From a phage, in sequence record PZ151149.1: DNA of 64,000 nucleotides, one strand, 5' to 3'. The notes beneath the pieces are model-generated. The model was not told where the DNA came from. It searched no databases and saw only the letters and a program-made list of their open reading frames with translations. The translations under genes were made by a program, and so were the position numbers. Shown piece by piece: positions 3,786 through 25,191 of the stretch (its first letter is position 1; each line of letters opens with the position of its first letter).

Positions 3786-4094
3786 TTATAAAGTTTGACC
3801 GTTGTTTTTCGCGTAATGCTGAATGCGTGCTTGATCTGCTTCCGCTGGTGATAGATTCCATGCGATCACTACAACTTCTGACGCATCGTCATCCGTTTTT
3901 GATACCCAATGATTGTGATTCATACAATTGTTTGCTATCGCGTGAGCAAATGATCTCATTACCGGAGACGTATAATCATAGTAACGGATTTTCAGATTTT
4001 CATCAACGTACAAGTAGATCGTATACGGCTTATATTCAGTAACCAGTAACAGACAGTTACGCAATTCTGGGAAAATCTTTTTAGTTAATTTCAT
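3786..4094 (-). CDS. small protein, HxHW family member B (102 aa)
   Basis: ATG at 4094 with GAGGA SD directly after stop of upstream gene; motifs IYLYVDENLKIRYY and NHNHW. Confidence 0.5.
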   Translation of the reverse strand: MKLTKKIFPELRNCLLLVTEYKPYTIYLYVDENLKIRYYDYTSPVMRSFAHAIANNCMNHNHWVSKTDDDASEVVVIAWNLSPAEADQARIQHYAKNNGQTL

Positions 4095-4095
4095 T

Positions 4096-4314
4096 TTATA
4101 ATCCTCGGTCGCGGCTATAGTACACGGTACGCCATACAATTTCATGTTTCGTGTCGCTCCAGCACACGATCTCATTTACTCTTAAATCTTTGTTATCAAC
4201 AAAAGATGAACATTGTGACGCTTCTTTCATCATTTTATCTGCTGTTTTCTCATCAAATACAGCACAGATTTCTTTATACACTCGATAATCTTTGAATTGA
4301 CTCTGGATACCCAT
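4096..4314 (-). CDS. hypothetical small protein, FKDY/KMM paralog 1
   Basis: ORF in track; start uncertain (TTG 4335, ATG 4326 or ATG 4314); paralogous to 4274..4531. Confidence 0.4.
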   Translation of the reverse strand: MGIQSQFKDYRVYKEICAVFDEKTADKMMKEASQCSSFVDNKDLRVNEIVCWSDTKHEIVWRTVYYSRDRGL

Positions 4315-4531
4315 AATTAACACCATTCCAACCAATTGTTTTTGAGAAAACGTTTATCCACTGTTGAGTGTAACATGTTTCTTTCCATGATACAATACGA
4401 GTAGAATAATGGTTTTTGTTTCCAGAAAAGGACGGGCATTTTGATGCATCTTCCATCATCTTTTCGGCGAACTCTGGTTCGTATACTCGCAAGATCTGTT
4501 GATATGCTTTGTAGTCTTTAAATTTGCTCAT
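4274..4531 (-). CDS. hypothetical small protein, FKDY/KMM paralog 2 (85 aa)
   Basis: ATG at 4531; shares FKDYxxYxxI ... KMM(K/E)(E/D)AS(Q/K)C(S/P)SF with neighbour. Confidence 0.5.
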   Translation of the reverse strand: MSKFKDYKAYQQILRVYEPEFAEKMMEDASKCPSFSGNKNHYSTRIVSWKETCYTQQWINVFSKTIGWNGVNYGYPESIQRLSSV

Positions 4532-4796
4532 AATCGTTAACTACCTTATCAGCTTCTTTTATTGTTTTTACATCAACTGCGATAACTCGTAAAGGTTCGT
4601 CATGGTTCCACCAGTGGTCATGAATATCAGCTTGTGATTTATCACCAAAGGAATCACTAATATCATTTTTACATTTATAGCTAATATGGCCTTCATAGTC
4701 AACATAAAGGTAATTATCGAAAATCGGCGTTTTTAAGATCATACCGAAAAATCTTTCTTTGTGTGTCTTATCCAGTGTTGCAGTAATTCGCATCAT
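4518..4796 (-). CDS. small protein, HxHW family member C (92 aa)
   Basis: ATG at 4796 with AGAGGA SD; motifs NYLYVDYEG and HDHWWNHDEPLRVIAVDV. Confidence 0.55.
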   Translation of the reverse strand: MMRITATLDKTHKERFFGMILKTPIFDNYLYVDYEGHISYKCKNDISDSFGDKSQADIHDHWWNHDEPLRVIAVDVKTIKEADKVVNDYEQI

Positions 4797-4808
4797 AATA
4801 TATTCCTC

Positions 4809-4988
4809 TTAGAAAGGGATGGTCATTTCTTGAGCTTGTACATTCTCGTTAGGATTAAACTTCATCCAACCGATATTGTCTACCAGCATATGTACATTTT
4901 TATCATATCCTACGTGAGTAGTCAACACTAAATGTGCTTTACCTTCAACGATGATTTCCATGTACTTCTGAACTTCGATAGCTTTCAT
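4809..4988 (-). CDS. hypothetical small protein (59 aa)
   Basis: Below track cutoff; ATG at 4988 follows conserved promoter/UTR/GGAGAA SD cassette; hand translation MKAIEVQKYMEIIVEGK... Confidence 0.45.
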   Translation of the reverse strand: MKAIEVQKYMEIIVEGKAHLVLTTHVGYDKNVHMLVDNIGWMKFNPNENVQAQEMTIPF

Positions 4989-5020
4989 TTTGATTCTCCG
5001 TTTGTTGTCTTGATGGGAGT

Positions 5021-5049
5021 ATCTTACTACTCCCTTTAATCATTGTCAA
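5021..5049 (-). promoter_or_regulatory. sigma70-type early promoter cassette
   Basis: TTGACA (5049..5044), 17 nt spacer, TAAGAT -10 (5026..5021). Confidence 0.6.
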
Positions 5050-5052
5050 CGA

Positions 5053-5220
5053 TTATTTGTTAATTTCCGGTGCGTTGCTTGGATAGTAGCCTTCTTTAAC
5101 ACCAAGATATTTTGCAACCATTCCGGTGATCTTCTGTGCTACTACGATATCGAATTTCAGGTAGTCTTCACCGTGGTTTGCTACAATGTATGCTTCGCAT
5201 TCTGCTTTAGTCTGGAACAT
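5053..5220 (-). CDS. hypothetical small protein (55 aa)
   Basis: ATG at 5220 with AGGAGA SD downstream of promoter cassette; track ORF 5053..5307 extends upstream through the promoter. Confidence 0.45.
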   Translation of the reverse strand: MFQTKAECEAYIVANHGEDYLKFDIVVAQKITGMVAKYLGVKEGYYPSNAPEINK

Positions 5221-5254
5221 TTTTGATTCTCCTATATCTCGTTGGTATGTGTGT

Positions 5255-5283
5255 AGTATAGGGGATCGGTGATCCCCTGTCAA
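5255..5283 (-). promoter_or_regulatory. sigma70-type early promoter cassette
   Basis: TTGACA (5283..5278), 17 nt spacer, TATACT -10. Confidence 0.55.
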
Positions 5284-5290
5284 CAACTTT

Positions 5291-5806
5291 TTATTCTTCA
5301 TCTTCATTTTTATCTTTATATGCGTACTTCATAAATTTGTCTGCTACTTTGTCCGCGTTTTCAGGTTCTACGTCTGACGCTAGGACAACAGCTAGTTCGG
5401 TTTTGTCGTTTCCATCATACCAATGATTATGAGTGTCGTTTTCTTCGATATAAAACGAATCAGTTGGAGCTGTGCGACAATATACGTCTAAATTACCATC
5501 GATATAAAAGATCCAATCCGAATACAAAATGATTGTTTTAGCCAGATTTTTATTGTCTCTTACAAAAGGTTCCGCGACAAATAGCTTAGTTTGTTCCATA
5601 ATATTTTCCTCAAAATTATACAGCTTCGTAAACTTCCCAATGTCAACACCAGCACGCTTAACGAAAAGGTTTTCTTTGATGTTATTCATAAACGTCTGGA
5701 TGGATTTAATGCGGTTGGAAGGTTTCCAGTCTTCGTTAGCATTGCGACGATACATCATGACATTACCAGTTTGCTTATATTCAGCAACCATTTTAAGACC
5801 ACACAT
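5291..5806 (-). CDS. small protein, HxHW family member D with N-terminal extension (171 aa)
   Basis: ATG at 5806 with GAGGA SD; motifs DWIFYIDGNLDVY and HNHWYDGNDKTELAVVLASDV. Confidence 0.55.
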   Translation of the reverse strand: MCGLKMVAEYKQTGNVMMYRRNANEDWKPSNRIKSIQTFMNNIKENLFVKRAGVDIGKFTKLYNFEENIMEQTKLFVAEPFVRDNKNLAKTIILYSDWIFYIDGNLDVYCRTAPTDSFYIEENDTHNHWYDGNDKTELAVVLASDVEPENADKVADKFMKYAYKDKNEDEE

Positions 5807-15416: not shown

Positions 15417-15893
15417 TTAATCATGACCGTGATTTGCAATATCCGCTCGCGTCTTATCTTTGTGATTTCCTACGTCAAAGACACGATAACCATTTTCACG
15501 CAAAACTTTAATCACTTCTGGGTTATCCTCAAAGACTCCGACAACTTCATCTTTATCAAAGGATTTAATTACCTCTAATTTGATGTGATAGTCTTTACGG
15601 GAATCGGTACGGCCTCTCATAAAGATTTTATCAAAACACACCCCGTTAGAAATTAACCAATCAATTGTTTCCATGTAAGCATGTGAACTTCGTCCGGTGA
15701 GGATGTAAATCAAATGCCCGTTGTCGGAAAGAGCATTAATAACACGAATTACATCGTAAATGGGGGAATCTCCCCCACATGCCTTGTTATATTCGATCCA
15801 CGACTCGACTTTATCAAGATTTTCGGTTGGCATCTTCGCTAGTCGATGTGTTGGATCTGTGATCGTAAAATCTAAATCGACAAAATATATCAT
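15417..15893 (-). CDS. HAD-superfamily phosphatase-like protein (158 aa)
   Basis: N-terminal DxDxT motif (FVDLDFTITD); downstream of nrdB. Confidence 0.45.
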   Translation of the reverse strand: MIYFVDLDFTITDPTHRLAKMPTENLDKVESWIEYNKACGGDSPIYDVIRVINALSDNGHLIYILTGRSSHAYMETIDWLISNGVCFDKIFMRGRTDSRKDYHIKLEVIKSFDKDEVVGVFEDNPEVIKVLRENGYRVFDVGNHKDKTRADIANHGHD

Positions 15894-17050
15894 AGATATT
15901 TCCCGAATCGGTTGTAGTCGTCGTCTGTTAAATCGGTATTAACCTGAGATACCAGATACATAATCTCTACTTCCTGCGCTGCATTCTGTACTTCGTCAGA
16001 GTTCAACCATTTACGCATCCACGGTAACGGATGACGACGAACACTAAACGGGCTTTTCAGTCCGGCAGCGCGCATACGGGAATCTGCCAGGTATTCTACA
16101 TAGGTTTTCAGAATTTCCGGTGACAGGTTGGGAATTGCTCCCATTGCGAATAGGTGGTCTACCCATTCTTTTTCTTGCTCGACAACATCCAGAAAGATTT
16201 TCGTTGCTTCGCCTTCAAGTTCTTCCGCAATCTGTTTCCACTCATCACCATCAACCCCCGTTTGCCATTGACGAATAATGTATTGTGTTCCTTTTAAGTG
16301 AAGTTGTTCATCACGCGCAATAAATTTCATGATCTTCGCGTTACCTTCCAGTAAACCACGTTCGGCAAAGCTGAAAGTACATGCAAAGGACACATAAAAA
16401 CGAATTGCTTCCAAAGCATTAACGCAGTGTGCACACAGATAAATCGAAGCCATCAGATCTCGTTTTGTATCTTCAAAAAATCTTCTTTCATCATCTAATG
16501 CTGTCTGGTCGTCTCGTTCTTCCCAATAGCGGAGATCTTCTTTTGCATTCTCGTACTTGCGAATCCAATAGAGAACATCATCATAATATTTCCCGATAGA
16601 TTCCGCTCGCTTCATGATAGCAGGGTTATCGATGATCTGGTCAAACTCACTAGCCGGATCAATGAAACAGTTACGCATAATGTGTGTATAGCTTCGGCTA
16701 TGAATCGTTTCGCTGAATGTCCATGTTTGTAACCATGTATCGAGAGTTGGATCAGATACAATTGGACCAAATACACGGGCTGGCGCTCTGCCTTGAATCG
16801 AATCTAGCAAAGTTTGATAACGTAAGTTCTCGGTGAAGAAACGCTTTTCAACATCGCTCATATTCAGATATTGAATGCGGTCAGTCGCTAGCGAGATCTC
16901 TTCTGGACGCCAGAAAAATGACAGAGATTTTTCAATTAATTCTTCAAATACTTGATGACGCTGAATATCATAACGAGCAATCCCTAAATCACTACCAAAA
17001 AACATCGGTTCAGTCATAATATCAACATGTTCACGATTAAATACGCTCAT
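15890..17050 (-). CDS. nrdB: ribonucleotide reductase small subunit
   Basis: About 386 aa, class I RNR beta-subunit size and ferritin-like sequence; directly downstream of nrdA as in T4; ATG at 17050 (track start is GTG). Confidence 0.9.
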   Translation of the reverse strand: MSVFNREHVDIMTEPMFFGSDLGIARYDIQRHQVFEELIEKSLSFFWRPEEISLATDRIQYLNMSDVEKRFFTENLRYQTLLDSIQGRAPARVFGPIVSDPTLDTWLQTWTFSETIHSRSYTHIMRNCFIDPASEFDQIIDNPAIMKRAESIGKYYDDVLYWIRKYENAKEDLRYWEERDDQTALDDERRFFEDTKRDLMASIYLCAHCVNALEAIRFYVSFACTFSFAERGLLEGNAKIMKFIARDEQLHLKGTQYIIRQWQTGVDGDEWKQIAEELEGEATKIFLDVVEQEKEWVDHLFAMGAIPNLSPEILKTYVEYLADSRMRAAGLKSPFSVRRHPLPWMRKWLNSDEVQNAAQEVEIMYLVSQVNTDLTDDDYNRFGKYL

Positions 17051-17052
17051 CA

Positions 17053-17592
17053 CTATTCTCCATCAATTTTGTTTATATTGTAGCCTACGTTGCCTTTTTC
17101 TATTTCTTTCAACGCAACCGAATTAAACGCTCTTGCCGCATCTTGTTCGCTATCAAATCTCCCTATATGAACACTCTTTCCTTGTATATTAATATGAACT
17201 AGCCATCTATTTGTGTACTTACACCAACTTACCCCGTTATATTTTGATGACGCACCTTTAAATTTAGTCCTGTTTCTGTTATTGACAGAATAATCAGTGC
17301 CTCGTAAATTTTCTATATGATTGTTCAGCTTGTTTCGGTCGATATGGTCTATAACTTTAGGCTTATGTCCATGAAACATATGATAAATCACATGATGTAT
17401 TAACTTCTTTCTATTGTCTACTGTTAGTTGAAGATATCCTCCGTTATGTGGACTTCCAACCTCATCACCAACTTTAACTTTATTGCTTGTTGAAACCTTT
17501 CTGAAAAGTTTACCGTCTTCGTATTTAAATAGATAGTGATACCTTTCGTAAAGTATTCGGTCCTCTTCCGTATAATGTATTACCTCATACAT
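17053..17592 (-). CDS. HNH-AP2 homing endonuclease (179 aa)
   Basis: HNH core DHIDRNKLNNHIENLR followed by AP2 DNA-binding domain YNGVSWCKYTNRWLVHINIQGKSVHIGRFDSEQDAARAFN; inserted between nrdA and nrdB. Confidence 0.7.
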   Translation of the reverse strand: MYEVIHYTEEDRILYERYHYLFKYEDGKLFRKVSTSNKVKVGDEVGSPHNGGYLQLTVDNRKKLIHHVIYHMFHGHKPKVIDHIDRNKLNNHIENLRGTDYSVNNRNRTKFKGASSKYNGVSWCKYTNRWLVHINIQGKSVHIGRFDSEQDAARAFNSVALKEIEKGNVGYNINKIDGE

Positions 17593-18178: not shown

Positions 18179-20422
18179 TTACAGCTTGCAAGATGAGCAC
18201 TCGCTAGCGTCTTCCGTACCATCTGCACCATCACGCACGTTAGCGTAATACAGGGTTTTCAGACCGTAATATTGAGCAAACAGCATATCATCTAACACAT
18301 CAGCAATATCGACTTTACCAGTCTTATAAGTGCTTGGATCATAGGATGTATTGGAACTAATCGCCTGATCCACAAACTTCTGCATGATCGCTGCCAGTGT
18401 CAGATAAGGCTTGTTACCTTTCTTGATCAGTGTCCAAAGCAGGTCAATAACATCAGCATTATTCTCTACGTTCGGAATAACCTGATTAAATTGCCCTTCT
18501 TTCGATCCTTTAACCGATACAATCCCGCGAGGCGGTTCAATACCGTTTGTGCTGTTAGATACCTGAGAAGACGACTCACACGGCATCAGCGCCGAAAGTG
18601 TACTGTTACGAATGCCATATTTTTTCAGGTCTTCGCGCAGTTCTTCCCAATCCATCTCATACACCGGATCAACCAGTTCATCTACTGTCTTTTTGTACCA
18701 GTCGATAGGCAGTTCACCGCGACCATAACGTGTTTCGTGCATCAGTTCGCAAGCACCCTTCTCTTTTGCTAGTTGCACACTAGCCTTAATCAGAGCATAT
18801 TGCAAGCGTTCAAACGTTTTATGCGTAAACTCGTTAGCGTCTTCATATGTGAAGAAATTATCCGCGAGATACGATGCAAAGTTAGTCACGCCAACACCCA
18901 GAGAGCGACGTTTTTTGGCTGTCAGAGCTTGTTCTACTGGATAATCCTGGTAATCTAACAAGTTGTCAAGCGCACGCACCATAACCATAGCAATGCGTTC
19001 TACTTCTTCCATGTTTTCGATATCGAAATTACCTAAAACATATGCTGCCAAAGTGCATAGACTGATCTCTGAATCATCACGACCCATCGGTTTTGTCGGC
19101 AGAGCAATTTCACAACACAGGTTAGATTGTTTAATCGGTGCTACATTACGAATAAACGCCCCGTGATTGTTCATGTTGTCTGTGAACGCTGGATAGATTC
19201 GACCAGTGTTAAAACGTTCAATTGCCACCGCTAAAAACAGGTCTTCGGCTTTAACACGAGTTTTACGAACACTCGGATCTTTTTCCAGTTTTTCGTAAAG
19301 CTGGCGGAAACCTTCCTCATCTCGGAAGTACAGATCCCACAACAAGCCACCTGCAACATCTGGACTAAACAGAGTAATGTAATCCCGTTTAAGGAATCGC
19401 TCTACCATCAGGTTATTAATCTGTACGCCGTAATCAAGATGACGAATGCGGTTATCTTCCACCCCCTTATTGTTCTTCAACACAATAAGACTTTCAAACT
19501 CTAAATGCCACATTGGGTAATAGAGAGTCGCCGCCCCGCCACGAATACCGCCTTGCGAGCATGACTTAACGGCAGTCTGAAAATGTTTCCAGAATGGGAT
19601 AACGCCAGTATGACGAACTTCACCATGCCCGATCTTAGATCCTTCCGCGCGAATCATGCCAGCGTTGATACCGATACCAGCACGCTTGCTAATATACTTG
19701 ATGATTGCATTTGCTGTTTCGTTGATGCCCTGCAATGAGTCATCACTTTCAATCACCACACACGAACTAAATTGGCGTGTTGGGGTACGCACACCTGCCA
19801 TAATCGGAGTAGGCAGAGAGATTTGCTTATTCGCAACAGCATTATAAAAATCAATCACATGTTCAAGTCGATTTTCTGTCTCTTCTTGATGCAAGCACAT
19901 ACCGATCAGCATATACGCAAATTGCGGTGTTTCAATGATTTTCTTAGTGCTGCGATCCTGAACAAGATATTTCTCTTTTAACTGCATCGCACCAGCATAG
20001 GTCATTTTAAAATCAAGTTTATGGTCGATGAATTTCTCCAGATATTCCACTTCTTCACGGGAATACTTTTGCAGAATTTCACGATCATATTTTCCGGTTG
20101 CAATATTACGCTCAATATGGCTGTAAAAATCAATCGGTTGGAATTGACCGTATACTGATTTACGAAGCGCGAACATTGCAAGGTTACTTGCTACATATTG
20201 ATAATCAGGTGTTTCTACAGTAATGTTATCTGCTGCGACCTTAATCAATACTTTCTGGATATCATTGGTAGACATACCTTCTGTCAGAAGTGGTTCAACC
20301 ATATCAAACAATTCATATGGATCAACGTTATGACCTTCGGCTGCCGCTTCCAGAATTTTCATTACTTTTTCTTTTTCAAACGGAACAGTCAGACCGGAAG
20401 ACTTAACAACATTTTTAATCAT
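18179..20422 (-). CDS. nrdA: ribonucleotide reductase large subunit
   Basis: 747 aa; active-site NLCCEI; C-terminal redox tail ECSSCKL; GAGGT SD. Confidence 0.9.
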   Translation of the reverse strand: MIKNVVKSSGLTVPFEKEKVMKILEAAAEGHNVDPYELFDMVEPLLTEGMSTNDIQKVLIKVAADNITVETPDYQYVASNLAMFALRKSVYGQFQPIDFYSHIERNIATGKYDREILQKYSREEVEYLEKFIDHKLDFKMTYAGAMQLKEKYLVQDRSTKKIIETPQFAYMLIGMCLHQEETENRLEHVIDFYNAVANKQISLPTPIMAGVRTPTRQFSSCVVIESDDSLQGINETANAIIKYISKRAGIGINAGMIRAEGSKIGHGEVRHTGVIPFWKHFQTAVKSCSQGGIRGGAATLYYPMWHLEFESLIVLKNNKGVEDNRIRHLDYGVQINNLMVERFLKRDYITLFSPDVAGGLLWDLYFRDEEGFRQLYEKLEKDPSVRKTRVKAEDLFLAVAIERFNTGRIYPAFTDNMNNHGAFIRNVAPIKQSNLCCEIALPTKPMGRDDSEISLCTLAAYVLGNFDIENMEEVERIAMVMVRALDNLLDYQDYPVEQALTAKKRRSLGVGVTNFASYLADNFFTYEDANEFTHKTFERLQYALIKASVQLAKEKGACELMHETRYGRGELPIDWYKKTVDELVDPVYEMDWEELREDLKKYGIRNSTLSALMPCESSSQVSNSTNGIEPPRGIVSVKGSKEGQFNQVIPNVENNADVIDLLWTLIKKGNKPYLTLAAIMQKFVDQAISSNTSYDPSTYKTGKVDIADVLDDMLFAQYYGLKTLYYANVRDGADGTEDASECSSCKL

Positions 20423-20490: not shown

Positions 20491-21711
20491 TTATACTGCC
20501 ATTTGAGCGGTGATTGCTGGATGGCTTTGATAGTTGTGAATTTTAAAGTCTTTCGGAGTCTTTGTCAATACCTCATCTAAAGATTTAAATTCCGGCAACT
20601 CAATTGTTGGTTTATCAAACGGAACACGGCTTAACTGTTCCATAACCTGATCAAAATGGTTTTTGTAAATGTGAGTATCTCCACCAGAGAAAATCAGTTC
20701 TCCTACCTCAAGATCACACATTTTCGCTATGATGTGAGTTAACAGCGCATAGCTGGCAACATTAAAGGGCAAGCCCAAAAAGCTGTCTACGCTTCGCTGA
20801 AACCACATACAAGACAATTTACCTTCATTGACATAGAATTGCACGAAAGGATGACATACACCTAATACAGCATTATGTGTTCCTTGTACGTTCCATGAGT
20901 CAATAATGATCCGGCGATCCGTTGGATTGTTTTTAATTTGTTCAATCACGTTTTGTAACTGGTCTTCCCAAATCTTCGGGCGATAGACATATTCTTCATC
21001 GTCTTTAGTGCTCGATGTGTCTACGTCCATACTAGCAAAGATCGTGGTATCCGGTGCTAAAATGTCACCGCCCAGATATTCATTATCAAGCAGATAACCG
21101 AAATAACCATCATCTACCCATTCCTGGAATCCCCATAAGCAATATGCATCATTAACAAAATTAGATTGAGTCTTCCAGTGGTCTGCTACCAGAATATAAT
21201 CAAACTCTTCATAACGCATACCACGCCAGATAGCACATAAACGGTCTTCTGTGTCATTGGTTGGTGTAAAGTCTTCTACCCACGGGTGCTTAAATGTATG
21301 TGTATATTTGCTCTTAACGCGCTTAATTTTGATTTCACCGTGTGGATGAATCGGTTTGCGTCGCCATGCCATGCCATACATATTTCCAACATTATAACCA
21401 TTGAATCTCAAAGGATTCTTTTCTTTCATATCAAGACAGTTGCCGCGCCAAATGTCGAAGGCTTCTTCGTCAAACTTACCGCGTGTAATTTCCTGTAAGC
21501 GACGGCGGTCAAGTGATCCCTCCATAAACCATAGCAATTCGCCAATTACAGAGGCTGTAGCCATCTTTTTAGTGGTAAGTAAGGGGAAACCCTTGCTTAA
21601 GTCAATTCGCATTTCTGCACCGAATTTAGAGAGCGTACCTACCCCCGTTCGGTCTTCACGAGGCCAGCCATTATCAAGAACATCACGCAACAGTTTCAAA
21701 TATTCTTTCAT
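20491..21711 (-). CDS. td: thymidylate synthase with large internal insertion (406 aa)
   Basis: Conserved ThyA blocks DRTGVGT, FPLLTTK, RRIIIDSWNV, LGVCHPFVQFYV, GLPFNVASYALL, GDTHIY; about 125 extra residues between the WRRKP and IWEDQ blocks. Confidence 0.85.
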   Translation of the reverse strand: MKEYLKLLRDVLDNGWPREDRTGVGTLSKFGAEMRIDLSKGFPLLTTKKMATASVIGELLWFMEGSLDRRRLQEITRGKFDEEAFDIWRGNCLDMKEKNPLRFNGYNVGNMYGMAWRRKPIHPHGEIKIKRVKSKYTHTFKHPWVEDFTPTNDTEDRLCAIWRGMRYEEFDYILVADHWKTQSNFVNDAYCLWGFQEWVDDGYFGYLLDNEYLGGDILAPDTTIFASMDVDTSSTKDDEEYVYRPKIWEDQLQNVIEQIKNNPTDRRIIIDSWNVQGTHNAVLGVCHPFVQFYVNEGKLSCMWFQRSVDSFLGLPFNVASYALLTHIIAKMCDLEVGELIFSGGDTHIYKNHFDQVMEQLSRVPFDKPTIELPEFKSLDEVLTKTPKDFKIHNYQSHPAITAQMAV

Positions 21712-22045: not shown

Positions 22046-22627
22046 TTACGCCTTCTTACGTTCTAAAATTTGCTCACTGATCAGATAATTATCAAGGAAG
22101 TAATTATGTTCTTCTTTTGTTGCAAAATCAAAAGATAATTCCTGAATCATTTCCTTAGAGATGCCAACATCATATTCAAACGGATCATTAATTCCTGATC
22201 GTTGAACATACGTTAACACAATACGGTCCGCAAAGTCAACTGCTTTTTCAATCAGGGAAGGTCCGCCAATAACGCTTACCAAACCTTGCAATTTCTCTAT
22301 GACCTCTAATAATTCCTTCAATCCACCATCATTAGTAATCGCGGTATACACATCTGGTTGGTCGCCGTTTTTTGCTTTCGGTGTTGGCTTACTGGTATCG
22401 GTGCTAACAACCACATTCACACGACCTTCCAGTGCTTTAGGGAGACTTTCAAAGGTATTACGTCCCATTACAACCGCCGCAAGATCAACATCTCCCATAG
22501 TGCGCATTTTAAAGTTTTCCATGTCCTTTTTGATTGGACGACCCCACGGTAAACCGCCTTTAAAACCAAAAGCCCAATTTTCATCTGACATTTTAGTATC
22601 ACCAATCGCAAATACACATTGAATCAT
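22046..22627 (-). CDS. frd: dihydrofolate reductase
   Basis: 193 aa (same as T4 Frd); DHFR motifs GGLPWGRP and VVMGRNTFESL; upstream of td. Confidence 0.85.
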   Translation of the reverse strand: MIQCVFAIGDTKMSDENWAFGFKGGLPWGRPIKKDMENFKMRTMGDVDLAAVVMGRNTFESLPKALEGRVNVVVSTDTSKPTPKAKNGDQPDVYTAITNDGGLKELLEVIEKLQGLVSVIGGPSLIEKAVDFADRIVLTYVQRSGINDPFEYDVGISKEMIQELSFDFATKEEHNYFLDNYLISEQILERKKA

Positions 22628-22642
22628 AATATAAATCTCCCA

Positions 22643-22972
22643 TCAAATCAGTTTGAAATAGTTTTCGTTTACATTTTCTTCTGTGATTGCTGTCTTAAAT
22701 TCTTGACCGTTATCCGGTGTGATGAAATAACGGTCAGAATAATCACGAAAACGTTTTAAGTGAGATACCCCAACATTAACACCATGTTCCAAAAAACGAA
22801 AGGTAATCATTTTTGGTTCATATCGATAGTCGCTGGTTAACACAGTACCATCCCCGCGACGGGCTTCATAAACCGTAATACATTCACGATTAGCGGCTTT
22901 AAGGCATTCTTCAATAGTGCCGCACGAGATAATACTTACTTTTTCATCTACGATTTGTTCTACAGTCCACAT
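22643..22972 (-). CDS. hypothetical protein (109 aa)
   Basis: ATG at 22972 with GAGGA SD; possible promoter (GTTGCA, 17 nt, TATAAT) at 23005..23034. Confidence 0.5.
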   Translation of the reverse strand: MWTVEQIVDEKVSIISCGTIEECLKAANRECITVYEARRGDGTVLTSDYRYEPKMITFRFLEHGVNVGVSHLKRFRDYSDRYFITPDNGQEFKTAITEENVNENYFKLI

Positions 22973-23004
22973 AATATAATCCTCTCTTTATTTCGATATG
23001 TGCA

Positions 23005-23442
23005 TTATACTTTGATTCTTACAAACTTGCAACCTAATTCTTTTTCAATTTGTTTCTGGCGCTCTATGTCCTGAGTAATTTTGTATTTGTGTTCCGGTTC
23101 GTCGATTTCATAAGCAACGTTATTAACCGGATCATAACCATCAATTCTATACCCCAATATAGGGTATTGTCGTTTTAATTTTATATTCAAAAGCTGTTCT
23201 ATTGTGTCTAGTGCAATCTTTTCGGCAGCTGATAATCCAAAACGTATTCCAAAATATTGTTTCCTCACCGCTTCCGCAAGTTCTTCTGTTAAAATTATTT
23301 GCTTCTGTTTTCTACCATACACATCAAAATATTCACTATAATCATAACACAGACCTGTGTTTCTTGCAACCTTTTTTATGTCTCTAGTTACATTGGCATG
23401 ACGTTTATTAAATTCTTTCGCAATATCCAGTGAGCTAATCAT
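23005..23442 (-). CDS. Rha-like N-terminal domain fused to PD-(D/E)xK-type endonuclease-like C-terminus (145 aa)
   Basis: N-terminus SSLDIAKEFNKRHANVTRDIKK resembles phage Rha regulatory domain; C-terminus GYRIDGYDPVNNVAYEIDEPEH ... GCKFVRIK resembles DUF559-type nuclease fold. Confidence 0.5.
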   Translation of the reverse strand: MISSLDIAKEFNKRHANVTRDIKKVARNTGLCYDYSEYFDVYGRKQKQIILTEELAEAVRKQYFGIRFGLSAAEKIALDTIEQLLNIKLKRQYPILGYRIDGYDPVNNVAYEIDEPEHKYKITQDIERQKQIEKELGCKFVRIKV

Positions 23443-23469
23443 TTTATCCTCCGTTGCTTAGATGAGTGT

Positions 23470-23497
23470 ATTATACATTACCACATCATCATGTCAA
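23470..23497 (-). promoter_or_regulatory. probable early promoter
   Basis: TTGACA (23497..23492), 16 nt spacer, TATAAT; followed by GGAGGA SD and ATG at 23442. Confidence 0.45.
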
Positions 23498-23559
23498 CAC
23501 CTTTTTCATAAAATTTTAGGCAATAAAAAAGCCTCCCCGAAGGAAGGCTTTAAAATTCA

Positions 23560-24534
23560 TTACATCCCTAACAGAGCGTCAAGATCATCCAGATCAGAAG
23601 CGGAGGAAGTACCGCCACCCAGGTCCAGAGATGCCATCAGGTCATCAGCGGAAGAACTCGACGCTGCGATAGCTGCGGTAGAAACTGACGCGGCGATAGC
23701 TGAGGTAGTGCCAGCATCGAATGCATTCATCTGTGCGTCAAAATCGTCAAGCTGGCTGTTAATCGCTGCCGCAGCACTGGAAGCCGCAGCACCAGCTACC
23801 ATAGAAACGCCCATAGTTTTCTTAAATTTGGTTTCCAGTTCATCGAACGGTTTAAACTGGCTAGGCGCTACAATCTCACCCAGATCAACCATGTTTTCCA
23901 TCAGATATTTCTGATATGCTTCGTCTTCAATCTTCGGAAGCTGTGATTGCTGCATGAAACGAGAATCATCATAGTTCTGGTGTTTATCAACCTTCTTAGC
24001 TTTCAGGAGGAAGTTAGCACCGGAGAACACACAAGTTACATCTACCGGAACTTCGCCCATGTCGGTATTCACGTTCACCATTGCAACGATCTTATCATAA
24101 ATTTTCTGACCGAAGCGGAATTTGAATACCTTACCTTCGTTTTCTGGTGCTTGAGGATCTTTCAGTACCAGAATATTTGCGTAGTAAGAGGCTTTACGCT
24201 TAATCAGTTGCCATTCTGTTTTATCGGTATTGTACAGATCTTTTTCGTTAATATATTTGCACACAGGGCAAGAATCAAAATCACCGTGGGTGCTGGAGCA
24301 GTTTTCCCAATACCATTTGCCATTAACTTTGAAGGAATGGTTTACCAGTTTCACAATCGGCAGACCGTCTTCTGTCTTAGACGGCAGGAAGCGAATCAGG
24401 GCTTCACCGTTACCCGCTGCATCAGTCTTAATCTTCCACTCTTTCGGATCTTCTTTGGAGAAACCGTTGCCACCTTTCAGTGCGGCCAGTTGAGCTTGCA
24501 GTTTGGAGCTATCTTGACGACGGAACATGTTCAT
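23560..24534 (-). CDS. 32: single-stranded DNA-binding protein gp32
   Basis: 324 aa; zinc-binding H/C cluster CSSTHGDFDSCPVC; acidic C-terminal tail DLDDLDALLGM; synteny 59-32-frd. Confidence 0.85.
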   Translation of the reverse strand: MNMFRRQDSSKLQAQLAALKGGNGFSKEDPKEWKIKTDAAGNGEALIRFLPSKTEDGLPIVKLVNHSFKVNGKWYWENCSSTHGDFDSCPVCKYINEKDLYNTDKTEWQLIKRKASYYANILVLKDPQAPENEGKVFKFRFGQKIYDKIVAMVNVNTDMGEVPVDVTCVFSGANFLLKAKKVDKHQNYDDSRFMQQSQLPKIEDEAYQKYLMENMVDLGEIVAPSQFKPFDELETKFKKTMGVSMVAGAAASSAAAAINSQLDDFDAQMNAFDAGTTSAIAASVSTAAIAASSSSADDLMASLDLGGGTSSASDLDDLDALLGM

Positions 24535-24594: not shown

Positions 24595-25191
24595 TTAATT
24601 GCTTGTCAATATTTTATCAATTATATCTAACAGTTTTGGTTTTCTATTTTCAAATTCTAACATCTCTTCGGGAGAAATGTCAACTACTTCTGTTTTGTTG
24701 AAAAAGTTTGGGTCTATAGCATCAGCAACAAAGTTTCTCGCAAGTGCTGCCGCTTTCTCATGAACATATATTCCCAAATATATCAACTTCTTTCTTTCGA
24801 CCTGAATATTGGCAACATATTTACCATCTCGTTTATAAAGACTAACACCGATATATTCAGATGATCGACCTTTCTGTTTACCCATATTTCTTGAGTTCTG
24901 TTGCTCGTTCGCATCTCTCAAGTTTTCAATCCGATTATCTGTTATAATTCGGTTAATATGGTCAACGTATTTTGGCATGTATCCATGATGCATAAAGAAA
25001 ATTATTCTATGCTCTTTATGATGTTTACCATCGATACATACCAATCGGTATCCATGACTAGGATTAACTCCACCCGCTCTAGATCCGACTTTGTGCTTTC
25101 GGTTTGTCGATATCTTGCGAATCAGCTTACCGTTATCATATTTAAAGAGTTCATGACAACGAGCATACAATTCAGGATCATATGTTTTCAC
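24595..25191 (-). CDS. HNH-AP2 homing endonuclease (198 aa)
   Basis: Paralog of 17053..17592: HNH core DHINRIITDNRIENLR plus AP2 domain YIGVSLYKRDGKYVANIQ; GTG start; inserted between 59 and 32. Confidence 0.7.
   Translation of the reverse strand: MKTYDPELYARCHELFKYDNGKLIRKISTNRKHKVGSRAGGVNPSHGYRLVCIDGKHHKEHRIIFFMHHGYMPKYVDHINRIITDNRIENLRDANEQQNSRNMGKQKGRSSEYIGVSLYKRDGKYVANIQVERKKLIYLGIYVHEKAAALARNFVADAIDPNFFNKTEVVDISPEEMLEFENRKPKLLDIIDKILTSN

Follow-up and report, generated by a model that had tools for sequence, protein, structure and literature searches.

A Rha-headed gene with a Vsr-like nuclease core in a variable Krischvirus slot: a probable free-standing homing-type endonuclease

What is the function of a 145-amino acid (aa) protein that joins the DNA-binding head of a phage regulator to a nuclease-like C terminus, and why is its gene found between gene 32 and frd in only some members of a group of closely related phages? 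These questions are raised by an open reading frame (ORF) on the minus strand of a 64,000-nucleotide stretch of phage DNA (sequence record PZ151149.1; the whole stretch is referred to below as the window, and positions are those of the window unless another sequence is named). The original prediction for this ORF left open whether it encodes a mobile nuclease or a DNA-targeting regulator. The first of these is much better supported by the analysis presented here, since the family has invariant catalytic-type residues and the gene behaves as a cassette, present or absent, in each of two phage backbones that are unrelated. With a probability of about 60%, we propose that the ORF encodes a site-specific DNA endonuclease of the free-standing homing type, whose gene occupies, as an optional cassette, a hyperplastic slot of Krischvirus genomes.

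The ORF begins with an ATG codon, lies where the original prediction had placed it, and contains both of the peptides that were quoted in support of a two-part protein. Its product is 99% identical to a "hypothetical protein" of phage vB_ESM-pEJ01 (UYE95259.1). When both halves were searched against profile libraries, each gave a significant match. Pfam Phage_pRha (PF09669) matches residues 2-54 with an E-value of 3.3e-8 (34.4 bits, gathering threshold 29.9), and Pfam DUF559 (PF04480) matches residues 82-142 with an E-value of 5.3e-5 (23.5 bits, gathering threshold 20.6). The proposed Rha-like N terminus and DUF559-like C terminus are therefore both upheld above curated thresholds, and the structural model described below agrees with each assignment. 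The N terminus is also matched by the Rha and anti-repressor families of PHROGs, and among 40 aligned homologues the Rha profile matches 38 and the DUF559 profile 37 (best DUF559 E-value, 3e-8). In the NCBIfam model for the full-length Rha subfamily (TIGR02681, phage_pRha), the ORF scores 29.2 bits, which is below the curated cut-off of 45.95. The ORF shares with Rha regulators the N-terminal head alone, so "Rha regulator" is the wrong name for it.

An AlphaFold model, for which the 40-sequence alignment was the input, contains two domains and has a mean predicted local distance difference test score of 88.5. The predicted core of the nuclease domain has the restriction-endonuclease-like order alpha-beta-beta-beta-alpha-beta, and fold comparison of the model shows that it resembles solved Vsr and DUF559 structures. 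Neither the protein nor the family profile retrieved anything relevant from the PDB by sequence, and the solved structures were linked by fold comparison alone. Among predicted viral structures, the model matches, with others, phage proteins that carry the names homing endonuclease, VSR endonuclease, or DUF559, as well as Bro-N proteins of large DNA viruses. One further viral match, A7KV39, which is entered without a name, has 266 residues, a length equal to that of the homing endonuclease I-Bth0305I.

Within the alignment, E74, E82, D101, G102, Y103, E112, D114, E115, H118, and R128 are invariant in all 40 members, and D125 is kept in 39. We regard E74, E82, D101, E112, D114, H118, D125, and R128 as the putative catalytic residues of the nuclease domain. 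I-Bth0305I (gp29 of Bacillus phage 0305phi8-36) offers a point of reference, since it is the prototype of the "EDxHD" Vsr-like homing endonucleases (PDB 3R3P; PMC3239194). In that enzyme, D196 is a metal ligand, H213 the general base, and D222 a catalytic residue, and there is an extra conserved acidic residue (Taylor et al., PMC3239194). The spacing of D101, E112, H118, and D125 in the ORF (11/6/7) parallels that of D196, E206, H213, and D222 in I-Bth0305I (10/7/9), where the correspondence of residues was drawn by hand from position and fold. A putative Vsr-type set, consisting of a metal-binding Asp, an extra acidic residue, a His general base, and a second Asp, is thus present in the ORF family. 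I-Bth0305I also passes the Pfam DUF559 model, with 29.7 bits.

Because of the residue invariance and the spacing parallel to I-Bth0305I, the predicted nuclease is best described as a Vsr-like, His-dependent ("EDxHD"-type) variant of the PD-(D/E)xK fold that is without the catalytic lysine. The original prediction of a PD-(D/E)xK-type nuclease was therefore right about the fold and needs correction as to the type. Likeness to Vsr itself is at the level of fold only, as Pfam Vsr (PF03852) gave no match to the ORF at E ≤ 10. The ORF product and I-Bth0305I also differ in build: I-Bth0305I is an intron-encoded protein of 266 aa with proven activity, NUMOD and helix-turn-helix (HTH) repeats for DNA binding, and multiple HTH matches, whereas the window protein, a predicted nuclease, is free-standing, has 145 aa, and carries a single Rha winged-helix domain with no NUMOD/HTH-repeat region.

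The ORF belongs to a large family. It has at least 276 full-length homologues in a word-indexed search, and the best 120 of these all cover 97-100% of the query and are 145-203 aa long. They come from E. coli and Salmonella prophages, from Chromatium okenii, and from many metagenomes, and where they carry a name it is usually "Rha family transcriptional regulator." An exhaustive profile search of 1.84 billion cluster representatives gave 13,407 matches at E ≤ 1e-3, 1,648 at ≤1e-10, and 78 at ≤1e-30; these counts include proteins that match one half alone, and the best matches are 140-205 aa long and either full-length or the C-terminal module only. The description of this ORF as an unusual fusion consequently holds for the fusion but not for its being unusual, as the architecture recurs widely and is rare only among T4-like phages (besides the window, 1 record among 50,697 phage genomes).

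The two parts of the family evolve differently. Mean pairwise identity is 34% in the N-terminal domain and 64% in the C-terminal domain, and the same nuclease module is found on a Bro-N domain, not a Rha domain, in phage mEp044 (203 aa) and in the myovirus Vibrio phage 355E48.1 (168 aa), where it is 50-53% identical to that of the window. Such a conserved cutter, attached to a fast-evolving, exchangeable reader, is what one would expect of site-specific selfish nucleases. In Vibrio phage 355E48.1 (L020), the gene for the Bro-N protein with the Vsr-like module (2222-2728) lies ∼1.2 kb upstream of nrdD (3946-5112, annotated as fragment part 1), and this pair could be a nuclease-associated split gene. 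Chromatium okenii contains at least three diverged family members (P0042, P0067, and P0101). One of its family genes lies at 5001-5492 of PPGH01000037.1 (L021); one copy is found among toxin-antitoxin, integrase, and ParA genes, and another adjoins a DDE transposase fragment, which suggests spread on other mobile elements.

The DNA around the ORF identifies the phage background. The surrounding 2.6 kb share 98.7% identity with Escherichia phage vB_ESM-pEJ01 and 90-97% with many coliphages of the Krischvirus group (RB49/phi1-like, Straboviridae). Read along the minus strand, the gene order is gene 59, a gene for a protein with HNH and AP2 domains, gene 32, the Rha-nuclease ORF, a 109-aa ORF, frd, a small ORF, and td. 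The reported position between gene 32 and frd is correct, with the addition that the 109-aa ORF separates the nuclease gene from frd.

The contents of this slot were compared across 11 Krischvirus loci, and the distribution among related phages, which had been named as a point to check, shows that the gene is optional. PHB13 and FL20 have nothing in the slot; its content is a 392-460-aa CapR/zinc-finger "endonuclease" (phrog_681) in Phi1, AV108, Skers, and Cognac, a 182-aa remnant of this CapR/zinc-finger gene in MIZ4, and an unrelated 109-aa ORF in kvi and Cognac. The Rha-nuclease gene is the occupant in the window, in pEJ01, and in Logan contig L005.

Comparison of L005 with the window reveals an exchange of heads. 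Gene 32 is ∼97% and frd ∼94% identical in DNA sequence, and the downstream 109-aa ORF is ∼70% identical in DNA and 66% in protein sequence. Within the nuclease gene, the 3' 230 nucleotides (nt) and the downstream untranslated region (UTR) are 100% identical, and the 5' half, at ∼45%, is non-homologous. From this comparison, an identical nuclease half is present in two diverged backgrounds, on two different heads. Between the same two sequences there is also an indel and a divergent patch in the 3' region of gene 32 (window ∼23650..23710), which encodes the low-complexity, Ala/Ser/Asp-rich C-terminal tail of gp32.

The two Krischvirus heads have their counterparts in a pair of prophage alleles, P0002-like and P0012-like, which occupy a single E. 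coli prophage site, after a gene for a 276-aa Rha protein and before the terminase gene. In other E. coli strains this site is empty, the difference being a clean indel of ∼590 bp that includes the gene's own terminator. In the alignment of the prophage site the comparison of L024 with empty sites is valid, and the row for L006 is uninformative. The prophage region was found in 56 genomes, and 1 of the 56 matches at least 80% of the query. A recent capture of the head from the neighboring prophage Rha gene was considered and rejected, since identity is at most 33%. Canonical Rha proteins (PF09669), of which the 276-aa prophage protein is an example, do have an N-terminal winged helix homologous to that of the ORF (33% over 83 aa), but they are about twice as long as the ORF product, and their C-terminal part differs from it and contains no nuclease domain.

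The flanks of the cassette are also informative. Upstream, on the minus strand, the stop codon of gene 32 is followed by a G/C stem-loop, an AT-rich tract, the promoter, GGAGG, and the ATG of the ORF. This arrangement matches the definition of the promoter-early stem-loop (PeSL) cassettes of RB49 and phi1 (PMC2839356; PMC4122927), and the PeSL is complete (23551 to 23448) and present whether the slot is filled or empty. The promoter, a 12/12 match to the sigma-70 consensus, is found in the empty-slot phages PHB13 and FL20 too, and so it is the phage's own and was not brought by the inserted gene. The ORF had been credited with its own promoter-like element; the promoter is real, but it is a resident PeSL promoter that the cassette uses (PMC2839356).

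Downstream of the gene there is a second, partial PeSL. The −35 element of its promoter-like site lies within the last codons of the ORF, and the −10 element contains the stop codon (TAA at 23007-23005). Compared with the promoter copy found ahead of the 109-aa ORF of MIZ4 and AV108, it matches from the −10 element onward except for one base; upstream of the −10 element it consists of nuclease-gene coding sequence, and it has no stem-loop. The left junction of the cassette falls between the Shine-Dalgarno (SD) sequence and the ATG, and the right junction falls in the −10/UTR region. In RB49 and phi1, PeSL-PeSL crossovers and mini-circle junctions have been mapped experimentally between the −10 element and the ATG (Arbiol et al., PMC2839356). 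The window therefore resembles the described cassettes in having a textbook upstream PeSL, a second copy after the gene, and junctions at mapped crossover positions, and it differs from them in a downstream copy that is without a stem-loop and takes its −35 element from coding sequence. The PeSL cassettes described so far mostly carry ORFans, whereas the cargo in the window is a predicted nuclease that could itself stimulate recombination.

The following mechanism would account for these features. The N-terminal Rha-type winged-helix domain would recognize the target sequence, and the 75-residue C-terminal Vsr-like domain would carry out Mg2+-dependent hydrolysis of DNA. D101 and E112/D114 would act as metal ligands and H118 as the general base with D125 as its partner, in a proposed active-site arrangement like that described for Vsr and I-Bth0305I. 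A monomer would be expected to nick DNA and a dimer to break both strands. When a carrier and a relative without the gene infect the same cell, a cut in the relative's DNA would be repaired from the gene-carrying genome, and the cassette would be copied in the process. The identical PeSL repeats that bracket the slot could provide the homology for this repair, and they would also permit excision and insertion, as already shown for the RB49/phi1 group. The nuclease gene would be transcribed from the resident early promoter, and the promoter-like site across its stop codon would keep the 109-aa ORF, frd, and td expressed.

This proposal can be set against known free-standing endonucleases of T4-type phages. 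In T4, their genes are promoter-less cassettes that use upstream promoters and contain embedded promoters for the downstream genes (PMC2988022), and the layout of the ORF, in which a resident promoter precedes the gene and a promoter-like site overlaps its stop codon, appears to follow the same rule. Like the ORF, T4 segG, mobE, and their relatives are small optional genes that lie between conserved genes in the orientation of their neighbors (PMC2988022); their catalytic fold is GIY-YIG or HNH, whereas that of the ORF is predicted to be Vsr-like. A closer parallel in fold may be Hef of the T-even-like phage U5 (Sandegren et al. 2005, as cited in PMC3239194 and PMC2988022). Hef, too, is a free-standing homing endonuclease of a T4-type phage, and Taylor et al. 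place it in the Vsr-like family (PMC3239194). As far as these descriptions of Hef go, it replaces mobE in a variable intergenic slot, much as the ORF alternates with the CapR-type endonuclease, but its locus is nrdA/nrdB, unlike that of the ORF, and they report no Rha domain for it.

Several observations weigh against a homing endonuclease. In T4, the promoter that lies immediately upstream of a free-standing endonuclease gene is of the middle or late type and in no case early (PMC2988022), and the ORF is driven by an early-type promoter, a difference that sets it apart from segG- and mobE-type genes. Direct comparisons of the ORF or its family with I-Bth0305I by hhalign, BLASTP, and hmmsearch with filters off were not significant, and for this reason membership in the EDxHD family at the level of sequence is not claimed; the proposed link to I-Bth0305I consists of a common Pfam model, a predicted fold, and the hand-made residue mapping. 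Cleavage, a target site, and biased inheritance are predictions across the whole family. In addition, the junctions of the cassette fall at the known PeSL-PeSL crossover positions of RB49 and phi1, and its arrival and loss are therefore explicable without any nuclease activity of its own.

The last of these points leads to the alternative that fares best. The gene might be a passenger that is moved by PeSL recombination only, through mini-circle excision and reinsertion at another PeSL, with a nuclease that serves in competition or exclusion against phage, prophage, or host DNA, or in DNA processing. That both junctions lie inside PeSL elements, where the mini-circle crossovers of RB49 and phi1 were mapped (PMC2839356), speaks for this explanation, and the empty-slot alleles do resemble simple PeSL × PeSL deletions. 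The prophage gene of E. coli, placed in the late region by a Rha gene and the terminase, is likewise in a position typical of accessory (moron-like) genes. PeSL shuffling accounts for movement within Krischvirus, but it does not account for the clean indel in unrelated temperate prophages, and it leaves unexplained why a family-wide conserved nuclease should be paired with a rapidly diverging, swappable DNA-binding domain. A role in defense gains little from PADLOC, whose models give only an 18-bit match to the core of a methyl-directed restriction enzyme, and a known defense system was rejected on this basis. We consider it unlikely that the gene is moved by PeSL recombination only, and we note that PeSL shuffling and homing are compatible and not mutually exclusive mechanisms.

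The regulator half of the original proposal would make the protein a Rha-type transcriptional regulator or an anti-repressor-like protein, in which the nuclease-like fold is catalytically silent and serves for dimerization or DNA binding. Against this, all of the residues expected of a Vsr-type active site are fixed in 40 diverse members and the DNA-binding half is free to change, the score against the full-length Rha subfamily is below its cut-off, and the C-terminal parts of the canonical 276-aa Rha proteins are absent. Moreover, the host phage is a virulent T4-type phage without a repressor circuit, and the gene is dispensable in close relatives. Because of the invariant catalytic-type residues and this dispensability, a purely regulatory role is very improbable. 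That the protein is a phage-encoded Vsr-like T:G mismatch-repair nickase acting on the phage's own DNA is hardly credible, because a separate sequence-reading domain is attached and the cassette is patchily distributed, whereas a repair gene would be expected to be stably inherited; there is also no Pfam Vsr match, and the long Vsr helix and N-terminal region are missing from the 75-residue core.

Optional endonuclease genes around gene 32 and nrd are a classic feature of T4-type phages, and the window contains further examples (Table 1). The HNH enzymes that had been noted elsewhere in the window are confirmed as two genes for proteins with HNH_3 and AP2 domains. The first, of 198 aa, lies between gene 32 and gene 59, which is the position of segG in T4. 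PHB13 and Phi1 lack it, so that their gene 59 directly follows gene 32; pEJ01, MIZ4, and Skers have it, and an ORF of the same length is found at this place in kvi, Cognac, FL20, and L005. The second, of 179 aa, lies between nrdB and nrdA, the position of mobE and hef in T-even phages. Together with the Rha-nuclease ORF, these two genes make three free-standing nuclease genes within about 8 kb. The thymidylate synthase of the window has 406 aa, and td products of relatives have 406-411 aa. The Pfam model matches this protein in two stretches, the better of which aligns profile positions 110-266 with residues 250-406, and ∼140 extra residues therefore appear to be inserted in the middle of the thymidylate synthase.

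Table 1. Positions of the Rha-nuclease ORF, its flanking elements, and neighboring genes in the window
Feature	Position	Strand	Basis or remark
ORF with Rha-type winged-helix and Vsr-like/DUF559 nuclease domains	23005..23442	-	ORF list (stop codon included), two Pfam domains, homologues
N-terminal DNA-binding domain (aa 1-63)	23254..23442	-	Pfam Phage_pRha match
C-terminal minimal nuclease domain (aa 72-145)	23008..23229	-	Pfam DUF559 match
Shine-Dalgarno sequence GGAGG, 5 nt upstream of ATG	23448..23452	-	Sequence reading; kept before every slot occupant
Resident early promoter TTGACA-16 nt-TATAAT	23470..23497	-	Promoter scan, 12/12 sigma-70 consensus
Gene 32 terminator stem-loop AAAGCCTTCC-TTCG-GGGAGGCTTT, then T run; stem-loop of upstream PeSL	23528..23551	-	Terminator scan; kept in all relatives
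Downstream partial PeSL: promoter-like TTGCAA-17 nt-TATAAT, then 5'UTR and SD for 109-aa ORF	22973..23032	-	Promoter scan, 10/12
Inserted cassette, approximate extent relative to empty-slot allele	22977..23443	.	Alignments with PHB13
Gene 32 (single-stranded DNA-binding protein), upstream slot boundary	23560..24534	-	Annotation in relatives; Pfam gp32 on L005 orthologue
109-aa ORF (phrog_16287), directly downstream of slot	22643..22972	-	
frd (dihydrofolate reductase)	22046..22627	-	Annotation in relatives; DHFR_1 on L005 orthologue
td (thymidylate synthase)	20491..21711	-	
198-aa HNH_3 + AP2 gene	24595..25191	-	
179-aa HNH_3 + AP2 gene	17053..17592	-	
nrdB	15890..17053		
nrdA	18179..20422		

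The other occupants of the slot and the gene next to it were also analyzed. The CapR-type occupant contains four CapR-homology repeats and a DUF4379 treble-clef zinc finger (L004:1521-2903, L011:1321-2499, L012:1692-2909, and L013:1308-2486); it is annotated as GIY-YIG in Skers, and Pfam finds no GIY-YIG domain in it. The possibility that alternative occupants carry the same nuclease was rejected, as Phi1 ORF240 (460 aa) and the MIZ4 protein (182 aa) have no similarity to it and belong to a different family, phrog_681. The 109-aa ORF downstream of the slot exists as sharply diverged alleles, with 66-81% aa identity among the window, L005, L013, and L014, and these are independent of slot content; an allele-matched pairing of slot occupant and 109-aa ORF was rejected, since there is no correlation with allele class. 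In PHB13 (L002), the empty-site junction just upstream of the start of the 109-aa ORF reads GGAGGATAATATTATATTATG and holds a 10-bp palindrome, ATAATATTAT, at about the point where the cassette is inserted in the window. This palindrome is a candidate target that may have arisen by chance, because the region is AT-rich.

Vsr-like homing endonucleases as such are already known, among them I-Bth0305I and, by the assignment given in Taylor et al. (PMC3239194), Hef. Literature searches that combined DUF559, Bro-N, or Rha with Vsr, homing endonucleases, or phage found no description of the architecture reported here. The new elements are an architecture that joins a single Rha or Bro-N head to a core of 75 residues within only 145 aa, a family that is large and has been mis-annotated, a head swap that occurred naturally between alleles, and the packaging of a nuclease in PeSL elements. 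More tentatively, and with less confidence than we place in the endonuclease itself, these proteins may form a large and so far unrecognized class of minimal homing endonucleases (about 145-200 aa), each with a 75-residue Vsr-like core and an exchangeable Rha or Bro-N head, that go under the name "Rha family transcriptional regulators" and pass between prophages of temperate phages and T4-type phages that are virulent. Members of such a class would be retargeted by head swaps, as the pairs of alleles in Krischvirus and in the prophages suggest, and the breaks that they make might drive the PeSL shuffling of Krischvirus, which has until now been put down to passive recombination.

If the protein is inactive, the gene amounts to an accessory cassette of an ordinary kind, in a region already known to be hyperplastic. 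If it is active, it would be among the smallest two-domain site-specific nucleases known, with a single winged-helix reader and a 75-residue cutter, and many proteins now named "Rha family transcriptional regulator" would be mobile nucleases. An active enzyme would also bring a Vsr-like member to the endonucleases that come and go near gene 32, frd, and nrd of T4-type phages, and it would connect breaks made by a nuclease with the PeSL-mediated shuffling of genes in the RB49 group in a way that can be tested. The head swap found in nature on identical nuclease halves would then be a ready-made experiment on target change.
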